Origin: a virus
Lineage: Duplodnaviria; Caudoviricetes
Virus record (IMG/VR): IMGVR_UViG_3300020576_004352
Location: 23,857-87,856 of that record
Reading direction: 5' to 3' (one strand)
DNA: 64,000 nt
Numbering within the stretch: position 1 is the first letter of the stretch; every line of letters begins with the position of its first letter. This document shows, piece by piece, positions 4,323 through 43,030 of this stretch. Both the position numbers and the translations under genes were made by a program. Below the pieces are notes generated by a model. It was given only the letters and a program-made list of their open reading frames with translations, did not search any database and was not told where the DNA came from.

Positions 4323-5297
4323 ATGTCTAAGCAAGAACTCGGTCTTCCCGAAAACCTGAAGAAAGCTGATATGATCATCAGCGACCTGTCCAGTGGTGGC
4401 CTCCTGACTGTTGAGCAGTCGGACACCTTTATCCGTAACCTGATTGACCAGCCCACGCTGCTCCGCCAGATGCGTGTTCAGACGATGAACAGTCCCAGCA
4501 TGGAAATCAACAAGATGGGCTTCGGCAAGCGTATCCTTCGCTCTGCCACTGAAGCGACTGCTCTTGCGGATGCCGCTGTGGATGGCACCAGCTTTGATGC
4601 CTCGACCTCTGGTGAATACCGGGCCCGCGCTAAGCCGCAGACCTCGAAGGTCACGCTGACCACCAAGGAAGTTATCGCGGAAGTTCGCCTGTCCTACTCG
4701 ACGCTGGAAGACAGCATTGAGCGCGGTAACCTTGAGAACACCATCCTCGCCATGATCGCTGAGCGTGCTGCTCTCGATCTTGAAGAGCTGGTCATCAACG
4801 GTGATACCTCGCTCAACAACACTGATCCATATCTCGATCTGATGGACGGTGTGCTGAAGCTCTCGACTGCTCACGTGGTTGATGCGGACGGTGCGGCCCT
4901 TAACCCCACCCTGTTCAACACCACGTTGAAGGCTCTGCCGAACAAGTATCGCCGGAACCGCAATCTGATGCGCTTCTTCTCGACCCCGGATGCTGAGCAG
5001 GATTACCGTCTTGCTCTGGCCAGCCGTGGTACGGGTCTTGGTGACGCGATCCTGACCGGCAATACTCCGGTTCCCGTGTTCGGTGTTCCGCTGGTAGGTG
5101 TGGCTCTGATGCCCTCCACCTCCCTGCTCTTCACTGACCCGAAGAACCTGATTTTCGGCATCCAGCGCAATGTTCGCATTGAAAGCGAGCGCCTGATCTC
5201 CGAGCGTCAGGTCAAGATCGTCCTGACCGCCCGTATCGCTACCGCTATCGAAGAGACGGATGCGGTTGTGAAGGTCAGCAATATTGGCTCGCTGTAA
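4323..5297 (+). CDS. Major capsid protein (HK97 fold, XkdG-like)
   Basis: GGLLTVEQSDTFI, AALDLEELVINGD, LLFTDPKNLIFGIQRNVRIE; strong RBS and highly biased codon use. Confidence 0.9.
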   Translation: MSKQELGLPENLKKADMIISDLSSGGLLTVEQSDTFIRNLIDQPTLLRQMRVQTMNSPSMEINKMGFGKRILRSATEATALADAAVDGTSFDASTSGEYRARAKPQTSKVTLTTKEVIAEVRLSYSTLEDSIERGNLENTILAMIAERAALDLEELVINGDTSLNNTDPYLDLMDGVLKLSTAHVVDADGAALNPTLFNTTLKALPNKYRRNRNLMRFFSTPDAEQDYRLALASRGTGLGDAILTGNTPVPVFGVPLVGVALMPSTSLLFTDPKNLIFGIQRNVRIESERLISERQVKIVLTARIATAIEETDAVVKVSNIGSL

Positions 5298-23685: not shown

Positions 23686-24131
23686 TGTTCACAAAACCAA
23701 AGCGCCCGGTCAGCCGGGTATTCATTCACTGCTCTGCCTCGGACGCGCTTGGCCCTGCATACAAAGGCGTGGAGCTGGTAAAGACCATAGACAGCTGGCA
23801 CAGGGCACGAGGCTTCAACGATATTGGGTATCACTATGTGATCGACAAGGCCGGTACTCTCATGATCGGGCGCGGTTTAGAGAGAGCCCCTGCTGCACAG
23901 GAAGGGCACAACTCCGGCACCATTGCTATCTGCGTGCATGGCCTTGATGTTTCGAGGTTTACGGTGGAGGCCCTTACAAGCCTTTTGTCCCTGTGCAAAG
24001 AAATCAATACCGCGTATAATGGCAGCATCACCTTTCACGGCCACAGAGAGGTTGCACCTAAGACGTGCCCCGTATTCCCGTATGACAAAGTTCTTGGGTT
24101 AGATAAGTTTGGTAGGATGCCTTTAAAATGA
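23685..24131 (+). CDS. Endolysin, N-acetylmuramoyl-L-alanine amidase (T7 lysozyme / Amidase_2 type)
   Basis: FIHCSA, WHRARGFNDIGYHYVID, GHNSGTIAIC, HGHREV.PKTCP. Confidence 0.93.
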   Translation: MFTKPKRPVSRVFIHCSASDALGPAYKGVELVKTIDSWHRARGFNDIGYHYVIDKAGTLMIGRGLERAPAAQEGHNSGTIAICVHGLDVSRFTVEALTSLLSLCKEINTAYNGSITFHGHREVAPKTCPVFPYDKVLGLDKFGRMPLK

Positions 24132-31253: not shown

Positions 31254-31283
31254 CTTGACTAAGAAAGTGTAATGGTCTATATA
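31254..31283 (+). promoter_or_regulatory. Sigma70-type promoter P1
   Basis: CTTGAC-N17-CTATAT, exact rhizobial RpoD consensus. Confidence 0.8.
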
Positions 31284-32176: not shown

Positions 32177-32211
32177 TTACACCCTTGGCGAAACTTAACT
32201 GGAGACTGAAC

Positions 32212-33870
32212 ATGACCAATGCTGAGCTGACAAGCAAAGAAAAGTTTATTGAGGATATTTCCACACTGGTGAACGCCGCCATTGGCGTTATCATTGTGCG
32301 CACCCGTGAGCCTTATGAGGTTATGACGGTGCTGCGAGAATACTCCCTGAGCACCAAGTGGCAGTTCAATCGCTGGAGCATTACTTCAGGCTTCCTGAAG
32401 TTTCCGTTGACCGATGCGACTGCGGAGCCGGTTAAGGTTGATAATACACAGCCTCCCGGTGCCGCGATTAAATACGTTGGCGACAATCAGGACGGCAACA
32501 ACTCAAGACAGATTTACGCGATGATGTGGAGCCACTTTTATAGCAAGCGCGACAATCCCATGCCTGAGTTTATTCAGCACATGGCAGACTACACAAAGCT
32601 CTTTGCCAATAAGCCAAAGCGCCTGATTATGGTGGTGCCGCCAGAATACCAAGTGCCTCCCGAGCTGCAGGACAGCGTGGTCATTGTTGACACTGACCTG
32701 CCGACGCAGCCTGAGCTGCGGGAGCTGTACGACGATGTGATGGAGCAGATTAACACGATGGGGAAGAAGGCCCTCACCTACACAGAGGAAGAGGTTGACC
32801 GCATCACTGCCGCAGGCGCTGGCATGACGCTCACGGAGTTCGATAACACACTGAGCCGGGCCCTGCGCAAATTCCGCAAAGAGCTGCCAGATATCGCAGT
32901 TGATACCTTCGTGCGCGAAATCAGCAAAACGAAAGCGGAGATTGTAAAGCGCAGTGAGGTGCTCGAGCTTATGCCTCTCGGCAACATGGACGAGGTGGGT
33001 GGGCTTGAAAACCTGAAGGAGTGGATCAGCCTGAGACGGCACGCTTACGATAAGGAGGCCCGTGATTTTGGGGTAGATCGTCCGCGAGGCGTGGCACTGC
33101 TTGGAGCCCCCGGAACGGGTAAGAGCTTGTGCGCGAAGGCCATTGCTCACGAGCTTGGCCTCCCTCTCATCCGCTTTGATATCAGCCGTATCTTCGGCAG
33201 CCTTGTCGGACAGTCAGAAGGTCGGGTGCGGGAAGCCCTCAAGCTGTGCGATGCCCTTGCGCCCTGCACGGTTCTCCTAGACGAGATCGACAAAGCCTTC
33301 GACGTGAACAGCGGGGGCGGAGACAGTGGAGTGGGCAAGCGGGTGCTTGGCGCGGTGCTCACGCACATGCAGGAGAGCGACAAGGATATCTTCTGGGTGA
33401 TGACTGCAAACCGTGTCGGTGGCCTTCCGCCAGAGCTCCTGCGCAAGGGTCGGCTGGACGAGGTGTTCTCGGTAACCACTCCCTCCGAGAAGGAGCGTGA
33501 GGCTATCTTCAAAATCCATTTGAAGAAGCGCAAGCAGGCTCCCGACCTGAAGGGGCTGGATAAGGCTGTGGAGGCGTCTAACCGCTTTGTGGGTGCTGAG
33601 ATTGAGGCGGCAGTGGCCGAGGCGGTGCTGCATGCCTACTCGAAGAACAAGGCATTGACCGCCGAGATGCTGGTGGAGCAGTTCAGGGATACCAAACCTC
33701 TCTCCGAAGCACACAAAGAGCAGTTCAGAATGATGGAGGATTGGGCTGCCGATAACGCGAGAGCCTCCAGCAAAGAGACGAGGACGCGCACTCGTGAGCG
33801 TAACCGGGTCGCGGATACCAGCTCCCGCAGCAGTGCCAGCGCGGCGCTTACTGACGATCTGGACGGGTGA
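32212..33870 (+). CDS. Ycf46/SpoVK-like AAA+ ATPase
   Basis: VGGLENLKEW, GAPGTGKS (Walker A), LLDEIDK (Walker B), TAN, PPELLRKGRLDE; ATG 32212 has GGAGA RBS. Confidence 0.92.
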   Translation: MTNAELTSKEKFIEDISTLVNAAIGVIIVRTREPYEVMTVLREYSLSTKWQFNRWSITSGFLKFPLTDATAEPVKVDNTQPPGAAIKYVGDNQDGNNSRQIYAMMWSHFYSKRDNPMPEFIQHMADYTKLFANKPKRLIMVVPPEYQVPPELQDSVVIVDTDLPTQPELRELYDDVMEQINTMGKKALTYTEEEVDRITAAGAGMTLTEFDNTLSRALRKFRKELPDIAVDTFVREISKTKAEIVKRSEVLELMPLGNMDEVGGLENLKEWISLRRHAYDKEARDFGVDRPRGVALLGAPGTGKSLCAKAIAHELGLPLIRFDISRIFGSLVGQSEGRVREALKLCDALAPCTVLLDEIDKAFDVNSGGGDSGVGKRVLGAVLTHMQESDKDIFWVMTANRVGGLPPELLRKGRLDEVFSVTTPSEKEREAIFKIHLKKRKQAPDLKGLDKAVEASNRFVGAEIEAAVAEAVLHAYSKNKALTAEMLVEQFRDTKPLSEAHKEQFRMMEDWAADNARASSKETRTRTRERNRVADTSSRSSASAALTDDLDG

Positions 33871-33881
33871 ACCCCGGTTCA
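33868..33881. promoter_or_regulatory. Palindromic site TGAACCCCGGTTCA
   Basis: Its TGA is the AAA gene stop; upstream of P3. Confidence 0.75.
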
Positions 33882-33921
33882 CTGGTGGGGTGCCTCCGTT
33901 GCAAAAAATGTGACGGAGGCA

Positions 33922-33951
33922 CTTGACAAATAAACTGTTAGGGTATAGGGT
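33922..33951 (+). promoter_or_regulatory. Promoter P3
   Basis: CTTGACA-N17-TAGGGT. Confidence 0.7.
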
Positions 33952-33978
33952 ACAGGCGTTGGAATTTGGAGACGCATC

Positions 33979-34632
33979 ATGAGCATCATGTTAGAGGCAA
34001 TGTTTGGAGAAGAGACGTTTGACACTGGCCATGCCAAGGTGCAGCTCTTCGCCGTGCCCTCGGCCATTTATAACAAGTTTGACCGCGAATTTTTCATTGA
34101 CCAAGCGGCACGAGACAGCAAGACCAGCGTGCGTCGCATCAGCATGGAGGGGCCTTTCTCTTCCCGGTCAGACCAGTACGCCTTCCGGGACGACGTGGGG
34201 CGGTGGTGGCGGGCCGTGTATGAGCTGCCCGAGGGCATGATGATTAAAGTCTACGCCCACAAGACGCCTCCTTTCGGCGGACGGGTTATCAAGACCACGT
34301 TCATCATCCGCATGAGAGCCAATGCGGCCTACAGGCAGCTGGACATTGCCCTGACGAGGCACGAGAAGGCCCGTTTCACCTCGGCTGTCGTGAAGGGCCG
34401 CTTTGACGTTCTGCCGCTGGCTGAGGCCAAGCGCAGGGGCTACAAGCCTAACCCGGCCTTTGAGCAAATGTTTAATGAGGCCGAAATGAACAGAATTGTC
34501 TCCGTTTCAGAGATTGAGCCGGAGATTGAGGCCGAGGCCCGTGTACGGGAAAGAACCCTGAAGCGGTCAGACGGCGAGAAGCTAACTGTGCAGACCGTCA
34601 AGACGCGACGCATGATACAGTTGGATGATTAA
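33979..34632 (+). CDS. Hypothetical protein with RVRERT and C-terminal RRMIQLDD tags
   Basis: ORF after P3; GGAGA RBS. Confidence 0.6.
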   Translation: MSIMLEAMFGEETFDTGHAKVQLFAVPSAIYNKFDREFFIDQAARDSKTSVRRISMEGPFSSRSDQYAFRDDVGRWWRAVYELPEGMMIKVYAHKTPPFGGRVIKTTFIIRMRANAAYRQLDIALTRHEKARFTSAVVKGRFDVLPLAEAKRRGYKPNPAFEQMFNEAEMNRIVSVSEIEPEIEAEARVRERTLKRSDGEKLTVQTVKTRRMIQLDD

Positions 34633-34653
34633 CCAGAAGAGGAGAATGATAAT

Positions 34654-35109
34654 ATGTCACATACTACAACTATCCGGGCAGTGCCAATCCGCGACACCCG
34701 CGCCCTGAAGTCTGCCGTCGCAGACCTGCGGGCACAAGGCGTTAAATGCGAGCTGGTTGAAAACCAGAAGCCCCGCCTGTATTCCCAAGGGCAGGCAAAC
34801 GACCTCGGTAACTGCGAGTACGTCCTGCGCTTGCAAGAGAGCCGCTACGACGTTGGCTTCAAGAAGCAGGCAGACGGCTCCTACGCAGCGGTGACCGACC
34901 TGTGGGGCGGCGACGTGGGCAAGAACATCGGTGCCCGATGCCCGATGCCCACCACAGAAGAGGGCCGCGCACAGCACGGCATTGGCCGTCTGATGCAGGA
35001 GTACACCAAGCACGCCACACTGAATTACGCCAGTGACCACGGCATGATGGTGGAGAACACCACGATGGATGCGGCTGGCCAGCTGGTACTTACCCTCGGC
35101 GGTTTCTGA
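34654..35109 (+). CDS. DUF1257 (Ycf35)-like protein
   Basis: MSHTTTI...IRD...LKSA, YDVGFKKQADGSY, L.QEYTKHA. Confidence 0.75.
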   Translation: MSHTTTIRAVPIRDTRALKSAVADLRAQGVKCELVENQKPRLYSQGQANDLGNCEYVLRLQESRYDVGFKKQADGSYAAVTDLWGGDVGKNIGARCPMPTTEEGRAQHGIGRLMQEYTKHATLNYASDHGMMVENTTMDAAGQLVLTLGGF

Positions 35110-35130
35110 AAACAGAGAAGGAGAAAGCAC

Positions 35131-35334
35131 ATGGACAAGAAAGTAACCATCACGATTGATGCGCTGGGCAATCCCAAGGTTGAAGCGCACAATTTCCAAG
35201 GCCAGAGCTGCGCAGCTGCTACCGGTGGCCTTGAAAAGATGCTTTCAGGTGGTGGCGGGGTGACCACTGAGTACAAGCCTGAGTGGACACAAGAAGACAG
35301 CTCCACAAATCAGGAAGTGACACAGAGCTGGTAA
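35131..35334 (+). CDS. DUF2997-like protein
   Basis: KVTITIDALGNPKVEAHNFQGQSC...TEYKPEW. Confidence 0.75.
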   Translation: MDKKVTITIDALGNPKVEAHNFQGQSCAAATGGLEKMLSGGGGVTTEYKPEWTQEDSSTNQEVTQSW

Positions 35335-35341
35335 GGGTTAT

Positions 35342-35411
35342 GGGGAGGTAGTTAAACGGATATAACGTAGGCCGGAAAGCCTAGTTGCGGGTTCAAACCC
35401 CGCCCGCCCCA
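35342..35411 (+). ncRNA. 70-nt tRNA-like RNA with a 6-nt anticodon loop
   Basis: Cloverleaf: acceptor GGGGAGG/CCGCCCC (one mismatch), U8, D arm GTTA-AACGGATA-TAAC, stem TAGGC-CGGAAA-GCCTA, T arm GCGGG-TTCAAAC-CCCGC, discriminator A; no encoded CCA. Confidence 0.75.
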
Positions 35412-35440
35412 ACACCCAACGCATACAAGGGAGACTGGAC

Positions 35441-35797
35441 ATGGGTACTCAAGTTATAACGATTGGTACGGACGGCAGCCTGCAAGGCCTGATGCGCAAG
35501 AAGGGCGAGGGCGTTGACCTCCGGGAGTTTGGCCCAGCACATATCGAGCGCACTTCACTGATCCAGTTTGATGAGGGTAAGCAGAAGTTCTACGTGGAGT
35601 TTATTGCCGGGCCGCTGGCCGGGAAGCTGCTGACCTATCCATTATTTGCGGCCTGCACACGCCTCCCGGTACGGTTCAACAACAGCGACCACGTCATGCG
35701 ATTTGAAACCTATGAGGAGGCAGTAAAGTGTGAGATCATGGTGCTTGATGGTTATCGCGCCAGACCGCTCTGGGCATCGGCTGTGGAGGTTCTCTGA
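35441..35797 (+). CDS. Hypothetical protein, probable member of the AAA-DUF1257-DUF2997 module
   Basis: ITIGTDGSL, IERTSLIQFD, FETYEEAVKCE. Confidence 0.55.
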   Translation: MGTQVITIGTDGSLQGLMRKKGEGVDLREFGPAHIERTSLIQFDEGKQKFYVEFIAGPLAGKLLTYPLFAACTRLPVRFNNSDHVMRFETYEEAVKCEIMVLDGYRARPLWASAVEVL

Positions 35798-36172
35798 ATG
35801 TCTGCGACTGTTCTGAAGTTCAAGCCGCGTGAGGAAGCCCCGCTCAGCCCGGAGGTCATACAAAGCCGCATGGAACGCCTGCTTTACGGGCCGCTGCAAG
35901 CGAGGCTTCCCACATCAGCGTACCGGGTAATGTCCTATATCTTGGAGAATGGGGCCTTCATAGGTAACCCCCAGCCCCGGATGAAGTTCAAGGACATGGC
36001 AGCCGGGAAGAAGATCAAAGTCACACAGGTAATTTGGGCCATTGACCATCTGCATAAGGAGAGCCTGCTTGCGTTTACGGACGTAACGGAAGATCAATTC
36101 AGGGTTCAAACCTCTCTGGGTTTGATGCAGCGATATGTGGATCGCACCGCCAGACCGGGCCGCGTTGACTAA
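35798..36172 (+). CDS. Putative winged-helix DNA-binding protein
   Basis: LPTSAYRVMSYIL...DMAAGKKIKVTQVIWAIDHLHKESLL. Confidence 0.45.
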   Translation: MSATVLKFKPREEAPLSPEVIQSRMERLLYGPLQARLPTSAYRVMSYILENGAFIGNPQPRMKFKDMAAGKKIKVTQVIWAIDHLHKESLLAFTDVTEDQFRVQTSLGLMQRYVDRTARPGRVD

Positions 36173-36253
36173 TCCAGACAATCGACTATAAAGACGAAAC
36201 CGCCAAGCTGCTTTCGGAGGAGCTTGGCGGCTTCTAACCACTAACGCAAGGAC

Positions 36254-37561
36254 ATGCGAATGGCCAAAAGTTATCTACCCGAAAATAATAACGCTGTAAA
36301 GCACCTACCTATGCAACAGAAGATGGAGGCGCTTGAGATTTTATACCAGAAAATACATCCGCACCTGAGCCCTGCCGAGAGCATGGTTCTCAACTTCATT
36401 TATATGCGGACGTATAAGTGGGGCAAGGTCAGCGAACACATTAGTTTCAAGCACTTCCTAGAGGGCATATTCACCCATGAGGGAGAGTCGCTGCTAGCTG
36501 GGCTTAATATGTCCCGGAGAACACTGGGCACGTGCCTGAACTCCCTGAAGGACAAAGGGGTGATTTTCGCCACAGAGCACAAGAAAAATAACGGGCAGGA
36601 CGATATGTCCGAATACCGGATGAACATGGAGTGGACTTCTATGCTGAAAATGCCGAAAAGACTAAAAACTAGCGGAAATCCTGAGAAAAATGGGGGGTGC
36701 AAATCTTGCCAAGGGGGGGTGCAAAATTTGCCAGAGGGGGGTGCAAAATTTGCACCCCTTAAGTACATAAATAAAATACATAAAGATAAACAAGTAGAGC
36801 GACAGGCGGAGCCTGCGCATACCGAAGAGGATATTTTATCAGCGATAAGCACTGCCAAAGGCAGAGCGACGGCTTCCCGGTTAAAGAAGGTTGAGCGTGC
36901 CCGGAGTAATCCGCAGAGCGTGGCCAGCCTTTTCACGGTTTGGGAACACGCCTTGCGGACACACTTCCCGGATTACCCGGTGGTGCAGCCTTGGACACGC
37001 AAGCAGCTGGGCCAGATGGCGGACTTCCGCACCGCCTTCGGCAAGAGCAACACGGGGGCAAGCGTCGCGGCTTTTGTGGAGTTTTGTGTCCAGCATTGGC
37101 GGCGCATAGGCGTGCTGCAATTCGCAAATCTGAAAAATGGAAGTTTCCCACTTTACCCGGATATTGGTTTCCTGATGGGCATGAAGCGGGGCTTTCTCAC
37201 CAGCTTCGCGGATAATGATTTTGCAGGCCGCACCGCCAAGTTTACCGAGGCGGATCGCAAGACCGCCAAGCTGCTCCGGCAAGGGTACACGCAGGCCGAG
37301 GCCGAGCGGGCCGTGCAGCAGGATACGGGCAGCAGGCGGGCTCTTGACCAGCAGCTGGCAGAGAATGACCGCGCCCGGCTCGATAACATTGCCCTGAAGC
37401 GAAAGCTGGAGGATGCCAAGCGTGATAATCGCGACCTGCGGGAGCTGGCTGCGGTGGGGGCCAAGGAGCGGGTACTCGCCAAATTTGAGAAGGCAAAGAT
37501 GAAAATAAATATCCGGGACGGGGACGCAGAGCTTCAGCCTTTGCCCGGCTGGTGCGAATAA
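36254..37561 (+). CDS. Replication initiator protein (lambda O-like)
   Basis: N-terminal wHTH (LSPAESMVLNFIYMRTYKW...MSRRTLGTCLNSLKDKGVI); internal iterons; upstream of loader and helicase. Confidence 0.75.
   Translation: MRMAKSYLPENNNAVKHLPMQQKMEALEILYQKIHPHLSPAESMVLNFIYMRTYKWGKVSEHISFKHFLEGIFTHEGESLLAGLNMSRRTLGTCLNSLKDKGVIFATEHKKNNGQDDMSEYRMNMEWTSMLKMPKRLKTSGNPEKNGGCKSCQGGVQNLPEGGAKFAPLKYINKIHKDKQVERQAEPAHTEEDILSAISTAKGRATASRLKKVERARSNPQSVASLFTVWEHALRTHFPDYPVVQPWTRKQLGQMADFRTAFGKSNTGASVAAFVEFCVQHWRRIGVLQFANLKNGSFPLYPDIGFLMGMKRGFLTSFADNDFAGRTAKFTEADRKTAKLLRQGYTQAEAERAVQQDTGSRRALDQQLAENDRARLDNIALKRKLEDAKRDNRDLRELAAVGAKERVLAKFEKAKMKINIRDGDAELQPLPGWCE
36692..36790. repeat. Probable replication origin: three GGGGGGTGCAAA iterons plus A-rich tract
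   Basis: Third copy is the inverted repeat GGGGTGCAAA-A-TTTGCACCCC; followed by TTAAGTACATAAATAAAATACATAAAGATAAA. Confidence 0.75.
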
Positions 37562-38118
37562 TGACTGTCGAGCAGAAGAAGGACGAGATCGCCCGCAGCA
37601 TGGTGAGCGCAGGGATAGGGAACTTTTATCACGGGGTTACGTTAGCGTCCTTCGGCTCAGCAGGTGAGCAGGTGAAATCGCGCATGAATGAACCGGGGTT
37701 CAAATCAGCGGTACTATCAGGCAGCGGATTTAACATACTCAGTACCGATCTCAAGGAATGCACCTTCCCATTTGTGGTGGCGCGGGCCTTACGTCTCGCC
37801 CGCATTGATGCGCGAGCTGTCCGCCTGATGCCCCTGCTGCGGTTTATCGAGGCCGGGCATACGGAAGACTTTGACGATATCCGGTTTGCTGAGTTTAACC
37901 GTGCACAGGCGTTGGTCATTCCGGGATTTTTTGAGCAGCTTGATGAGAAACCTTTCACGCGCAGAGAGCTGTACCGAATTGAAAACTTCCTGACCGAGAT
38001 GATGGATAACGGGTTCTCGGTCAGCGTGCAGCACTACGGCAGCCTTGACAGACAGGACTGGTTTTCGCCCCGCCTTATTGCCCGGCTGCGAGAGTGTAAT
38101 ATGGAGGTCACGATATGA
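37561..38118 (+). CDS. DnaC/IstB-like helicase loader with degenerate P-loop
   Basis: TAATG coupling; position between initiator and DnaB; overall layout DnaC-like, no GxxGxGKT. Confidence 0.5.
   Translation: MTVEQKKDEIARSMVSAGIGNFYHGVTLASFGSAGEQVKSRMNEPGFKSAVLSGSGFNILSTDLKECTFPFVVARALRLARIDARAVRLMPLLRFIEAGHTEDFDDIRFAEFNRAQALVIPGFFEQLDEKPFTRRELYRIENFLTEMMDNGFSVSVQHYGSLDRQDWFSPRLIARLRECNMEVTI
37689..37702. promoter_or_regulatory. Palindromic site TGAACCGGGGTTCA
   Basis: Inside the loader gene. Confidence 0.65.
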
Positions 38119-39430: not shown

Positions 39431-42400
39431 ATGGCGCGTAAGCTAAGTGCTCCGGTAGAGGAAGATACGATTGCCCCGGTCAAACTGAAGAGGCTGCCCA
39501 CTCTCGGTGATATGGAGCGGGCGCGTATTGCTGTGGTGTGCGATGCGCCAAGCCAGAAGAGTTGGGATAAGTGTCTGCCGATCAGTGACGGTGCCTTGAA
39601 CCTCTTTGCCAGCACGGCTACTGAGTGTGACTTCAAGAAAGATGATTTTTTCTTTATTGCGCCGTGCCCTCCGATCCCTGAGGAGATTGAGAAAAACGAG
39701 CGCCGCATTGCGGCCCATGCGCTGCCTTACCAAGAGCAGGTCAAGTCCATTATTGAGGACATGCAGCCCGACCTGATTATTTTCATGGGCAAGTGGGGCG
39801 GGCGTGTTCTTACCGGGAAGTCAGTAAAGATTACGAAAGCCCGTGGCACCTTTATCAGCGTGAATGTGGCTGGTACTGATTATCCTGTGCTGCCCATGCT
39901 GTCGCCCGGCCATGTGTATCATCGCCCGGAGCTAAAAGATATTTTCGTTACTGATTTTATGATGGCCATGCGTTTGCGTGACCGCAAGTATAACCTTGCC
40001 GCTGTACAGGCTGACATAAGCGACACCAAGGACTACCGGTGGTGTACTGACCTTTCGGAGTTATTAGCTAACCCGCCTAAGATGATCTCAGTGGATACTG
40101 AAACCACTGGTCTTAAATGGTGGACGGCAGGCACCGATGACCCGGACGCTGTAAAGATTTTGACGGTGCAGATTGGCTTGGGTAAGGGCCGTGCGCTGGT
40201 AGTGCCCATGGACTGCGACTACTACCCTGAGCTTACTCCAAAGAAGCGGGCGAAGCTGTTAGGGCAGTTGCGCAAACTTCTCGAAAATCCAAAGATTAGA
40301 AAGGCTGGGCATAATTTCAAATACGATACCCACGTGCTTCGTGAGGATTTGAATATCTATATCGACTATGACTGCGACACACAGTTGCTGGCCTTTATCG
40401 TTGACGAAAACATGCAGGAAAAGAGCTTGGACGAATGTGTGCGCCGTTGGGTGCCTCGCCTTGCTGGATACAATGACGAGCTGAATAAGAAGCTGGATAA
40501 AGAGAACATGCGCTCCACCTCCCATGAGGACATGCTGGAGTATGGTGGTGGCGACGTTGACGCTACATTTGACTTGGCGCTGATCCTCACCAAGCTGGGC
40601 AAGAAGGATGCCCGGCAATGGAATTGCTACCAGCGGATTATTCTCCCTGCGATTAAGGCATTCTGCGATCCCGTGGAGCTATATGGTGTTCGCGTGAATA
40701 CCAAAGTTTTGACTGACCTTGAACGTGAGCTGGCCATAGCGGAGCGTGAGCAATACGACATTCTGATTGATCAGGTACCTGCCGCCATTAAGCGCAAGCA
40801 CGCTGACAAAGGCCTGAAGTTTAGCCGTGCCGCTTTTTTAGTGGACATTCTTTTCACCAAGCAGGGGCTTAACCTGAAGCCGCGTGTGTTCACAGCTAGC
40901 ACAGCGAAGCTGCCTGAGGATCAGCGCATACCCTCCGTATCCGCGAAGCAGCACCTGCCCTTCTTTATCGAGAACCCCTTTGTGGCGCAACTATCCGAAT
41001 ACGTGAAGCTGGAGAAGTTGCGCAGCACCTATGTGGGCGTGCCCTATGATGAGAAGAAGAAAGGCCCGACTGGTTTCTGGCAGTACATCCATAACAATGA
41101 AATCCACCCATCCTTTATCCTGCACCGTACTGTCACAGGACGTGCTGCTTGTTTAACAGGTGATACTTTAATATCTGTTTTGGATGAGCGCGGGCTTGTT
41201 CCGATGCGAGATATTAAAGAGGGTGATTGGGTTTGGTCATTTAATGACCAGCTTAAACCGCAAGCGGCAAAAGTAAGCTGGTCAGGCAAAACGAAGAAAA
41301 AAACGAAAATAGTTAGGGTAAGCTACTTAACGCAGGGAACGCGAGAAGTTAAAAGCATCCGTTGCACCCCCGATCATCTTTTTAGATTGCGGGATGGTTC
41401 TTATGTCCGCGCCGATCAGCTAAGCGCGGGCCACCGCCTTCTTTCCATAGAACGGCAAGAAAATGAACGTGGCTACCGCAGAGTACATTTTACCGGATGC
41501 GAAGGCCGTTCATGGCCAGAACACCGATTAGTATACCAGTCTATGCATAGCGAGCTTACAGAGCATGTCCACCATGTGGATGAATGTAAACTAAATAATT
41601 GCCCTGATAATCTCGAAGGGCTTACGAATGAAGAGCATGGAACCCGTCATCGCTGGACACCTAAACGTACTGCACAGATGAAGGCGTATCGTGCAAAACT
41701 TAAAAAAGAAAATCGCCTTCCTGCTATCAAAAGGCGCACAGGCAAAAACCATCCTATGTACTACGAGCTAGATGTAGAATGGGCTAAAAAGGTTCTTTGG
41801 GATAACGGTGGAAAGCCGAGTGTATTCAGAGACGTATATGACCTAGATTACACGGCGATAATGACCAAACTCAAAGCAGCCGGGGTTGACTGGCGTGCCA
41901 TAAGAAGCAGCTTTAATTCCCGTGGTGAGCGTATTGATGATGCCTTACTAGCCAAGGCGAAAAAAGCCAATACCCTTCATGAAGCTGCTAAAACCTTAGG
42001 TGTAAACTTTTATCGCGCTAAAGAGCTTTTAGCAGACGATCATAATCATGCGGTTGTAGGGGTTGAGTATTTAAACCAGCGCGAAGATGTGTACGACATA
42101 ACCGTTCCCGGCACTCATAATTTCATTGCGAATGGGGTGTGTGTTCATAACAGTGTAAATCCAAATGGCCAAAACTTCCCCAAGCGAGGCAAGCTGGCCA
42201 AGACCTACCGTAAAATCTTTGTGGCGCGTAAGGGTTACAAATTATTGGAATGTGACCTCTCGCAGGCGGAGATCAGAATTGCCGCATGGATGGCAAATGA
42301 AAAGAACATGATCCGTATCTACAAGGCCGGGGGCGACATTCACGCCGCCACTGCGGCTCACACAATGGGCCTCACGTTAGAGCAATTTAACGCGCTGGAT

Positions 42401-43030
42401 AAGGACACAAAGAAGGCAAAACGCCAGCAGGCTAAGGCTGTGGTTTTCGGTTATATCTACGGAATGTGGTGGAAGAAGTTTAAGATATATGCAAAGACAG
42501 ATTATAACTTAGATTTTACTGATGAACAAGCAGCCAAACTAAGAGAAGATTTTTTCAGTGCGTATCCCGGCCTTGTAGAATGGCATGAAGCCATGCGAGA
42601 TCAGGTGAACAAGTATGGGTATGTTCGGGCTTTACACGGGGCTAAGCGTAACCTGCCCTCAGTGTATTCCCCGGAAGACTATATCAAACAGGAAGCGCAG
42701 CGGCAGGCGATTAACTCCCCAGTGCAGCGGTTTGCCTCTGATCTTGGTTTGATGGCCATGGTACGCCTTACCCGCGATGCCGACCCGGAGGTTATCCGCC
42801 CGTTATTGTTCATTCACGATGCGCTTGTGGTTGAGGTGAAGGAAGAATTTGCTGAGCAGGCGCAGGGCTGGATTAAGTATTATTTTGAGAGCGCCCCTCT
42901 TGAAAAATGGTTTGATATTGTTCCACCTTTACCAATCGTGGCAGACGTTTCTACCGGCTACAATCTTGGTGAGATGGAAGAATGTGAAGGTGTCAAAGCG
43001 GTTAAGCCTCCCTTTGCAGGTGTTGATTAA
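39431..43030 (+). CDS. polA: Family A DNA polymerase with UDG-like N-terminus, 3'-5' exonuclease and intein
   Basis: SVDTETTG, GHNFKYD, YGGGDVD; TVTGRAA/intein/SVNPNGQNFP; DLSQAEIR, AKAVVFGYIYG, IHDAL. Confidence 0.95.
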   Translation: MARKLSAPVEEDTIAPVKLKRLPTLGDMERARIAVVCDAPSQKSWDKCLPISDGALNLFASTATECDFKKDDFFFIAPCPPIPEEIEKNERRIAAHALPYQEQVKSIIEDMQPDLIIFMGKWGGRVLTGKSVKITKARGTFISVNVAGTDYPVLPMLSPGHVYHRPELKDIFVTDFMMAMRLRDRKYNLAAVQADISDTKDYRWCTDLSELLANPPKMISVDTETTGLKWWTAGTDDPDAVKILTVQIGLGKGRALVVPMDCDYYPELTPKKRAKLLGQLRKLLENPKIRKAGHNFKYDTHVLREDLNIYIDYDCDTQLLAFIVDENMQEKSLDECVRRWVPRLAGYNDELNKKLDKENMRSTSHEDMLEYGGGDVDATFDLALILTKLGKKDARQWNCYQRIILPAIKAFCDPVELYGVRVNTKVLTDLERELAIAEREQYDILIDQVPAAIKRKHADKGLKFSRAAFLVDILFTKQGLNLKPRVFTASTAKLPEDQRIPSVSAKQHLPFFIENPFVAQLSEYVKLEKLRSTYVGVPYDEKKKGPTGFWQYIHNNEIHPSFILHRTVTGRAACLTGDTLISVLDERGLVPMRDIKEGDWVWSFNDQLKPQAAKVSWSGKTKKKTKIVRVSYLTQGTREVKSIRCTPDHLFRLRDGSYVRADQLSAGHRLLSIERQENERGYRRVHFTGCEGRSWPEHRLVYQSMHSELTEHVHHVDECKLNNCPDNLEGLTNEEHGTRHRWTPKRTAQMKAYRAKLKKENRLPAIKRRTGKNHPMYYELDVEWAKKVLWDNGGKPSVFRDVYDLDYTAIMTKLKAAGVDWRAIRSSFNSRGERIDDALLAKAKKANTLHEAAKTLGVNFYRAKELLADDHNHAVVGVEYLNQREDVYDITVPGTHNFIANGVCVHNSVNPNGQNFPKRGKLAKTYRKIFVARKGYKLLECDLSQAEIRIAAWMANEKNMIRIYKAGGDIHAATAAHTMGLTLEQFNALDKDTKKAKRQQAKAVVFGYIYGMWWKKFKIYAKTDYNLDFTDEQAAKLREDFFSAYPGLVEWHEAMRDQVNKYGYVRALHGAKRNLPSVYSPEDYIKQEAQRQAINSPVQRFASDLGLMAMVRLTRDADPEVIRPLLFIHDALVVEVKEEFAEQAQGWIKYYFESAPLEKWFDIVPPLPIVADVSTGYNLGEMEECEGVKAVKPPFAGVD
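41150..42151 (+). other. 334-aa intein with HNH endonuclease
   Basis: CLTGDT start, CTPDH block B, EHRLVY...HVHHVDECKLNNCPDNLE, VYDITVPGTHNFIANGVCVHN end, +1 Ser. Confidence 0.92.

Follow-up and report, generated by a model that had tools for sequence, protein, structure and literature searches.

A tRNA-derived cloverleaf without decoding features at the site of an intercistronic hairpin in a phage gene cluster

Analysis of the phage record IMGVR_UViG_3300020576_004352 (IMG/VR) revealed, between a DUF2997 gene and the gene for a 118-aa protein (p118), a 70-nt element that we call TLS2 and that can be described with confidence as a tRNA-derived, structurally sound cloverleaf lacking the features needed for decoding. 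TLS2 lies where the closest relatives of this phage carry a plain intercistronic hairpin, and none of the relatives sampled has it. The functional reading we prefer, held tentatively and with rather less than even confidence, is that the cloverleaf replaces that hairpin as a punctuation element and is cut by host tRNA-maturing enzymes, which would split the upstream message from the replication message; a neutral relic of a tRNA gene is nearly as likely. The features are collected in Table 1, in which positions refer to the window, that is, the whole 64,000-nt stretch analysed (positions 23,857 to 87,856 of the record), unless marked as genome positions.

Table 1. TLS2 and its parts, the neighbouring genes, and the second tRNA-like element of the phage
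Feature	Position	Strand	Basis or remark
AAA+ ATPase	32185-33870	+	upstream module (32185-35109)
217-aa protein	33979-34632	+	upstream module
DUF1257 protein	34654-35109	+	upstream module
DUF2997 gene, 67 aa	35131-35334	+	Pfam PF11211, E 2.3e-06
TLS2 5' flank GGGUUAU	35335-35341	+	minimum-energy fold
TLS2, tRNA-like cloverleaf, 70 nt	35342-35411	+	RF00005, ARAGORN, minimum-energy fold
TLS2 acceptor	35342-35348/35404-35410	+	
TLS2 A5, opposite G68 (35406)	35346	+	cmscan 'v' marks; unpaired in fold
TLS2 D arm	35351-35366	+	
TLS2 anticodon arm	35368-35383	+	
TLS2 6-nt 'anticodon' loop CGGAAA	35373-35378	+	Infernal gap, ARAGORN, sequence
TLS2 variable region GUU, 3 nt	35384-35386	+	Infernal gap, sequence
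TLS2 T arm	35387-35403	+	
TLS2 discriminator A	35411	+	
TLS2 3' flank ACACCC, pairs with 5' flank	35412-35417	+	sequence, fold
RBS GGGAGACUGGAC and ATG of p118	35429-35443	+	motif listing, alignment with relatives
p118, 118 aa, phrog_38408, function unknown	35441-35797	+	opens block to RepO-like, DnaB and PolA genes
ORF-free region, about 575 nt, ending in TLS1	genome G000:C1:3911-4485 (= L082:112-686)		about 19.4 kb before window start
TLS1, tRNA-like domain	genome 4364-4459		outside window; ARAGORN, mascRNA model

When the window was searched against Rfam with Infernal, TLS2 was the sole match above threshold: the tRNA model RF00005 aligned to it over model positions 1-71 with 45.3 bits (E 1.9e-06; the cut-off is 29 bits), and no other RF00005 match was found anywhere in the 87.9-kb virus record. 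The acceptor stem (GGGGAGG/CCGCCCC) has 7 bp including an A5.G68 mismatch and is followed by U8 and A9, by a D stem GUUA/UAAC with the D loop AACGGAUA, by G26 and a 5-bp anticodon stem UAGGC/GCCUA, and by a T stem GCGGG/CCCGC. The stems thus have the 7/4/5/5-bp lengths of a tRNA, at a score over the gathering threshold, and 20 of their 21 pairs are Watson-Crick, A5.G68 being the only exception. The tertiary core of a tRNA is likewise in place, with A14, A15-U48, G18 G19, A21 and G53-C61 present besides U8, and with the T loop UUCAAAC. Since TLS2 combines this score with 20 of 21 pairs, the core bases and the T loop, we conclude that a genuine tRNA was its ancestor and that the fold did not arise by chance.

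The departures from a working tRNA are equally clear. The 'anticodon' loop has 6 nt and no U33, where a tRNA loop has 7 nt, U33 and a purine at 37, and the variable region, at 3 nt, forms no long arm and is shorter than the 4-5 nt of ordinary class I tRNAs. The discriminator A runs directly into ACACCC, so that CCA is not encoded. These defects appear in the Infernal alignment as a gap at U33, a gap in the variable region and one non-standard acceptor pair, while ARAGORN, which denotes a 6-nt loop by a 2-base anticodon, calls positions 35341-35413 'tRNA-???' with the anticodon (ga) and gives no isotype. Ordinary tRNAs score higher with the same model, as 52 of the 55 in one bacterial genome reach 52-76 bits. 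The minimum-energy fold of positions 35332-35420 is the same cloverleaf, lengthened by the pair U35341-A35411 (the base preceding G1 being a U) and then, across a 2x2 internal loop, by GGGU/ACCC, with ACCC at 35414-35417. A one-base assembly error behind the unusual loop is unlikely, since the 29-kb Logan contig L078 (run SRR32380203, which may not be independent of the IMG/VR reads) is 100% identical to window positions 33441-37797, TLS2 included.

An earlier note on this stretch, made from its letters alone, had described an intact elbow, a 6-nt loop without U33, a 3-nt variable region, an A-G acceptor mismatch, a missing CCA and flanks able to extend the stem. Every point of that structural description holds when compared with Infernal, ARAGORN, the sequence and the fold, and the tRNA match at 45.3 bits came with the defects as described. 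Its interpretation, a non-decoding tRNA-like RNA, is partly supported: it fits the anatomy as far as the 6-nt loop, the missing U33, the 3-nt variable region and the lack of an ARAGORN isotype are concerned, but TLS2 is not conserved in the sampled relatives, as shown below.

Would such a molecule still be of use to the ribosome? A working unconventional tRNA, for example one reading doublets or promoting frameshifts, which would be charged and used in translation, could account for the 2-base anticodon modelled by ARAGORN and for the tRNA-like acceptor stem and discriminator A. We nevertheless regard this as very improbable: the geometry provided by U33 and a 7-nt loop is missing, a variable region of 3 nt is unusual for a tRNA, relatives that have the same genes manage without TLS2, and neither an isotype nor a parent tRNA was found.

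The search for that parent used ARAGORN, BLAST, pattern scans and a covariance model. With BLAST, TLS2 gave only partial matches in phages (E >= 3) and no match in E. coli genomes, and exact-pattern scans of IMG/VR, either with the T arm plus acceptor or with the region from the D arm to the T loop, returned 0 matches. The covariance model R1, made from TLS2, scored 36-38 bits with ordinary tRNA-Ala and tRNA-Lys as its best hits, which represents merely generic similarity. In 185,579 species genomes the pattern combining D arm and T arm had 0 matches, and the pattern combining T arm and 3' acceptor had a single one, identical over 25/25 nt, in the chromosome of Actinokineospora sp. HUAS TT18. 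The matching sequence (L084:1651-1700, minus strand) is the 3' half of a truncated tRNA(CAU) that ends in CCA and adjoins IS110 and Mutator transposase genes. We rejected it as the parent of TLS2, because the agreement is limited to 25 nt and does not extend to the anticodon arm or the variable region, and because the host would be implausible, a phage of 54% G+C being an unlikely match for an actinomycete.

This same tRNA half, the sole genome match of the T arm and 3' acceptor, is of the kind that integrative elements leave behind and brings in the possibility that TLS2 is an attachment-site relic, namely a tRNA copy used for integration into a host tRNA gene. We consider this very improbable. 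Neither a tyrosine nor a serine recombinase (PF00589, PF00239) was found in the 87.9-kb record, which is 81% complete; TLS2 is a complete cloverleaf rather than a 3' fragment; its position is within an operon, in a phage that has replication genes of its own; and the genomic identity amounts to only 25 nt of a truncated tRNA from an unlikely host.

All listed genes around TLS2 are on the plus strand, in the order AAA+ ATPase (phrog_8638), 217-aa protein, DUF1257, DUF2997, TLS2, p118, 124-aa protein, RepO-like initiator, DnaB and PolA, with primase, helicase and RecA further downstream of PolA. The TAA stop codon of the DUF2997 gene lies 7 nt 5' of TLS2, whereas on the other side the RBS of p118, of a GGAGACU type that also precedes several other genes of the source phage, begins 18 nt past the end of TLS2 and the ATG 30 nt past it. 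The phage has a promoter family, cTTGACAAAtAAAcTGTTA-N-TAGGGT, whose spacer is unusually conserved and whose copies lie at window positions 31255, 32148, 33923 and 52267 and at genome positions 1470, 14951, 15854 and 20085. The TLS2 spacer contains no copy of this family and no terminator consensus; a promoter inside that spacer was therefore rejected, and the simplest reading makes TLS2 a segment of a polycistronic transcript, within which it would be co-transcribed with its neighbours. No description of the AAA-DUF1257-DUF2997 module or of a TLS2-like element was found in the literature.

Two other genes of this block deserve comment in their own right. The AAA+ ATPase probably starts at the ATG at 32212, directly ahead of which lies the RBS CTGGAGACU (window 32199-32214), and not at the TTG at 32185 given by the ORF finder. 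The PolA gene (window 39431-43030) encodes an N-terminal UDG-like domain and, inside the polymerase domain, an intein with an HNH endonuclease.

The gene order around TLS2 recurs in the Rhizobium phages RHph_I4 and vB_RleS_L338C and in about 20 of the 71 more distant IMG/VR loci that were recovered with the ATPase, and the DUF1257-DUF2997 pair is found in about 57 loci. No tRNA was present in the DUF2997-p118 spacer of the Rhizobium phages or of the 71 more distant loci, RF00005 had no match at E <= 0.1 anywhere in 10 related phage genomes, and R1 found only one ordinary tRNA-Ala in 56 related loci. The closest relatives, recovered through the protein database (L076 and L077; p118 79% and 83% identical, nucleotide identity about 84%), have no TLS2. 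A 57-nt spacer, as in these two, is also present in four more contigs in which DUF1257 is 90% identical, and in L079, whose DUF1257 is 83% identical, the spacer is an unrelated one of 92 nt, again without TLS2. A scan of JGI metagenomes with the DUF1257 protein returned no new close relative. All the copies of TLS2 that were found are identical and confined to one phage lineage.

These results run against two expectations of the earlier note. It had named a lack of conservation among the outcomes that would speak against it, and TLS2 is indeed missing from the relatives sampled, the closest of which share 79-90% protein and about 84% nucleotide identity. It had also proposed that the RNA could be a ligand of the surrounding module; since the AAA-DUF1257-DUF2997 module is widespread, occurring in about 57 loci that have no tRNA-like element at that spot, this role is disfavoured. 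Judged by these comparisons, TLS2 is a recent peculiarity of one lineage rather than a conserved new class of RNA.

The spacer itself is a turnover hotspot. Compared between window positions 35335-35440 and the corresponding regions of L004, L010, L019, L053, L056 and L079, the distance between DUF2997 and p118 varies from -7 to about 315 nt or more, and the content is unrelated even between loci with 83-90% protein identity. Elsewhere in the module, a GIY-YIG/NUMOD3 homing-endonuclease gene that is absent from the window phage lies between the 217-aa gene and DUF1257 in one of the closest relatives (L076:2509-3162), showing that there is mobile-element traffic in this module.

The 57-nt spacer of L076 and L077 contains a GC hairpin of 9 bp (GGGAGGGGU/GCCCCUCCC; fold z about -3) that has no U tract, and the strands of this hairpin align where the acceptor strands of TLS2 lie. 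In both cases the 5' strand begins 6-7 nt past the stop codon. The G-rich 5' strand of the relatives is followed by UA, as that of TLS2 is by U8 A9; the 3' side of loop plus stem in L077 reads CCGCCCC, with the same letters as the 3' acceptor strand of TLS2; and downstream, an A/C-rich linker and the GGAGACU RBS can be aligned between the TLS2 locus and both relatives. A GC hairpin starting 6 nt past the DUF2997 stop codon is present in the Rhizobium phages too, which makes a hairpin in this position probably ancestral and the plain hairpin probably the older state. Either the tRNA interior, of about 50 nt, was inserted into the hairpin, or the sister lineage lost all but the acceptor stem of a tRNA that the common ancestor of this small clade already had; by either route, the TLS2 cloverleaf fills the slot of an intercistronic stem-loop.

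The spacers of the Rhizobium phages (L002:7584-7715 in RHph_I4 and L003:7442-7570 in vB_RleS_L338C) have a further structure of their own. Besides the GC hairpin they contain a long-stemmed three-way junction, with fold z values of -5.7 and -4.9. Comparison of the two phages reveals 4 compensatory pairs in it, and a covarying stem carries the conserved loop UUCCUCGUG. The long stem has CUUCUCC as its 3' strand; these bases can also pair with the downstream RBS GGAGAA, which makes translational control possible in these phages.

Because TLS2 sits exactly at the place of the intercistronic hairpin of its relatives, a processing signal, which was among the roles proposed in the earlier note, is plausible and is the function we prefer. 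According to this model TLS2 took the place of the hairpin and probably also its job, that of structural punctuation inside a polycistronic mRNA. The acceptor-T stack and the elbow formed by the D and T loops, on which tRNA-like punctuation would depend, are both intact, and for that reason excision by the tRNA-maturing enzymes of the host would be expected: the cut by RNase P would fall between U35341 and G35342, and that by a 3' endonuclease (RNase Z) after A35411. These cuts would part the AAA-DUF1257-DUF2997 message from the replication message downstream and might in this way affect expression of the operon.

Also in favour of punctuation are the U that precedes G1, the 7-bp acceptor stem, the lack of a promoter or terminator consensus in the spacer, and a second mimic in the same phage, TLS1, described below, which resembles TLS2 in its flank-extended stem and in lying shortly ahead of a gene, and which is conserved. 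Against it stand the absence of TLS2 from every sampled relative and the identity of its copies, which give no comparative signal of selection. Moreover, leader-trailer pairing, an A.G mismatch and a missing CCA could all lower the efficiency of RNase P, and the cloverleaf may add nothing, as the plain hairpin evidently suffices in the relatives.

Nearly as likely as the punctuation model, and ranking just below it, is the possibility that TLS2 has no role and is the neutral relic of a tRNA gene, recently acquired or ancestral, that decayed by two 1-nt deletions and one stem mismatch. Its absence from the closest relatives, from the 71 distant loci and from the ten related genomes fits this possibility well, as do the score below that of 52 of 55 ordinary tRNAs, the three separate departures from a working tRNA, and a spacer in which unrelated sequences come and go among close relatives. 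Random decay, however, should hit the stems as well, and here 20 of 21 pairs, the elbow and the core are intact while the loop defects fall in the anticodon and variable loops. Moreover, TLS2 retains the position and the stem of the hairpin found in its relatives, and the same lineage has conserved a second mimic that lacks an anticodon loop. The two explanations also overlap, since a decaying tRNA gene would be processed too.

The second mimic, TLS1, forms the 3' end of an ORF-free region of about 575 nt and lies about 28 nt ahead of a gene start. ARAGORN with default settings calls it tRNA-Val(cac), of 92 nt, at genome positions 4366-4457, and the Rfam tRNA model gives no match there even at E <= 10. 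It is the best match in the genome to the mascRNA model RF01684, a weak one with 17.1 bits against a cut-off of 42.5, and beyond it no Rfam family was found for the 575-nt region. TLS1 has U8, A14, R15, G18 G19, A21 and G26 and, like TLS2, the T loop UUCAAAC; its acceptor stem is extended by the flanks and CCA is missing. In place of the anticodon arm it has a 36-nt irregular hairpin with a 3-nt loop, and hence no anticodon loop.

Exact-pattern scans of IMG/VR with TLS1 motifs gave 0 matches. The 575-nt region is conserved in two relatives (L085 and L086), with 89% mean column identity and long invariant blocks, whereas the downstream protein is only 76% identical. In these relatives the D and T arms of TLS1 are invariant, the outer stem carries two compensatory pairs, and the central hairpin has a different sequence that again forms a hairpin. 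This conservation and the compensatory changes show that selection in this lineage maintains a tRNA mimic that has an elbow and lacks an anticodon loop, and the whole region ending in TLS1 is a candidate for a new large structured phage RNA.

We also considered TLS2 as a paralogue of TLS1, which the data do not establish. TLS1 is the best non-self match of R1 in this phage, at 15.7 bits with an E value of 0.17, and the similarity score of the two elements over the D and T segments, 20, equals the maximum among 44 unrelated tRNAs.

A broader idea, in our view unlikely, is that this lineage employs tRNA mimics with an elbow and no anticodon loop as an RNA module, with TLS1 serving as the 3' domain of the 575-nt RNA, TLS2 being newly recruited and one factor recognising both. 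Such a factor could act in RNase P-type 3'-end formation, as in MALAT1-mascRNA, or could be a host or phage protein that binds the elbow.

The presence of two such mimics in one phage, and the fact that TLS2 keeps elbow and acceptor and not the anticodon loop, would at most be indirect signs of an anti-defence decoy or sponge; the earlier note had raised a decoy for anticodon nucleases or tRNA-sensing defences. Here the elbow and acceptor would bind a tRNA-targeting nuclease, a tRNA-sensing defence or a modifying enzyme, and the crippled loop would keep the RNA out of translation; that TLS2 is lineage-specific, as accessory counter-defence items often are, agrees with this. Anticodon nucleases, however, recognise the anticodon loop, of which the malformed loop of TLS2 is a poor mimic. 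No tRNA repair or defence-related gene was found among the scanned neighbours of TLS2, and no similar element was detected in other phages, either by the IMG/VR pattern scans or by R1 in the related loci. A decoy function thus seems improbable, although less so than a role in decoding.

Taken alone, TLS2 is an orphan, present in one phage lineage and without variation among its copies. Its value lies in showing two states of one intercistronic position, a plain hairpin in relatives of about 84% identity and a complete tRNA-shaped four-way junction in the source phage, a comparison that is rarely available. If RNase P does cut TLS2, this would be a clean natural case of phage tRNA punctuation inside an operon. 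Together, TLS1 and TLS2 hint that this phage group may reuse tRNA mimics lacking an anticodon loop as a building block, and TLS1 with its 575-nt RNA looks the more promising of the two. More generally, 'tRNA-???' calls by ARAGORN in phages are not all noise, and close relatives are needed before a function is claimed for them.

Finally we compared TLS2 with known systems. It resembles bacterial and phage tRNA genes, and phage pseudo-tRNAs, in its cloverleaf, core bases, T loop, 7-bp acceptor and above-cut-off score, and differs from canonical tRNAs in the 6-nt loop, the lack of U33, the 3-nt variable region, the lower score and the absence of an assignable anticodon or isotype. The tRNA-like domains of Y RNAs (YrlA and Yrn1) are, like TLS2, non-decoding mimics with T and D arms. 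That of Yrn1 from D. radiodurans has a 5-bp 'anticodon' stem, a 6-nt loop and no V arm, and in M. smegmatis the acceptor stem of YrlA measures 7 bp, RNase P cleaves this RNA and CCA is added to it (Chen et al. 2014, PMC4201824); we take both as precedents for the punctuation model. In contrast to these RNAs, TLS2 has neither a Ro-binding helix nor a match to an Rfam Y-RNA family, its 5' and 3' ends, like those of a genuine tRNA, lie at the acceptor stem, with no extra helix, and no Ro60/TROVE gene (PF05731) was found in the 87.9-kb phage record (81% complete).

The mascRNA / MEN-beta elements (RF01684) are tRNA-like structures within longer transcripts, and the cuts that RNase P and RNase Z make there set the ends of the flanking RNAs. 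This type is our working model for TLS2 as an analogy of mechanism and not of membership, given that the mascRNA family is eukaryotic and that TLS2 was not among the matches of a genome-wide search with RF01684. With the intercistronic stem-loops that govern mRNA stability and processing in bacterial and phage operons, TLS2 shares its place between a stop codon and the next RBS, but it elaborates the hairpin into a four-way junction with tRNA tertiary motifs. TLS2 belongs with the aberrant, non-decoding tRNA-like elements in phage transcripts.
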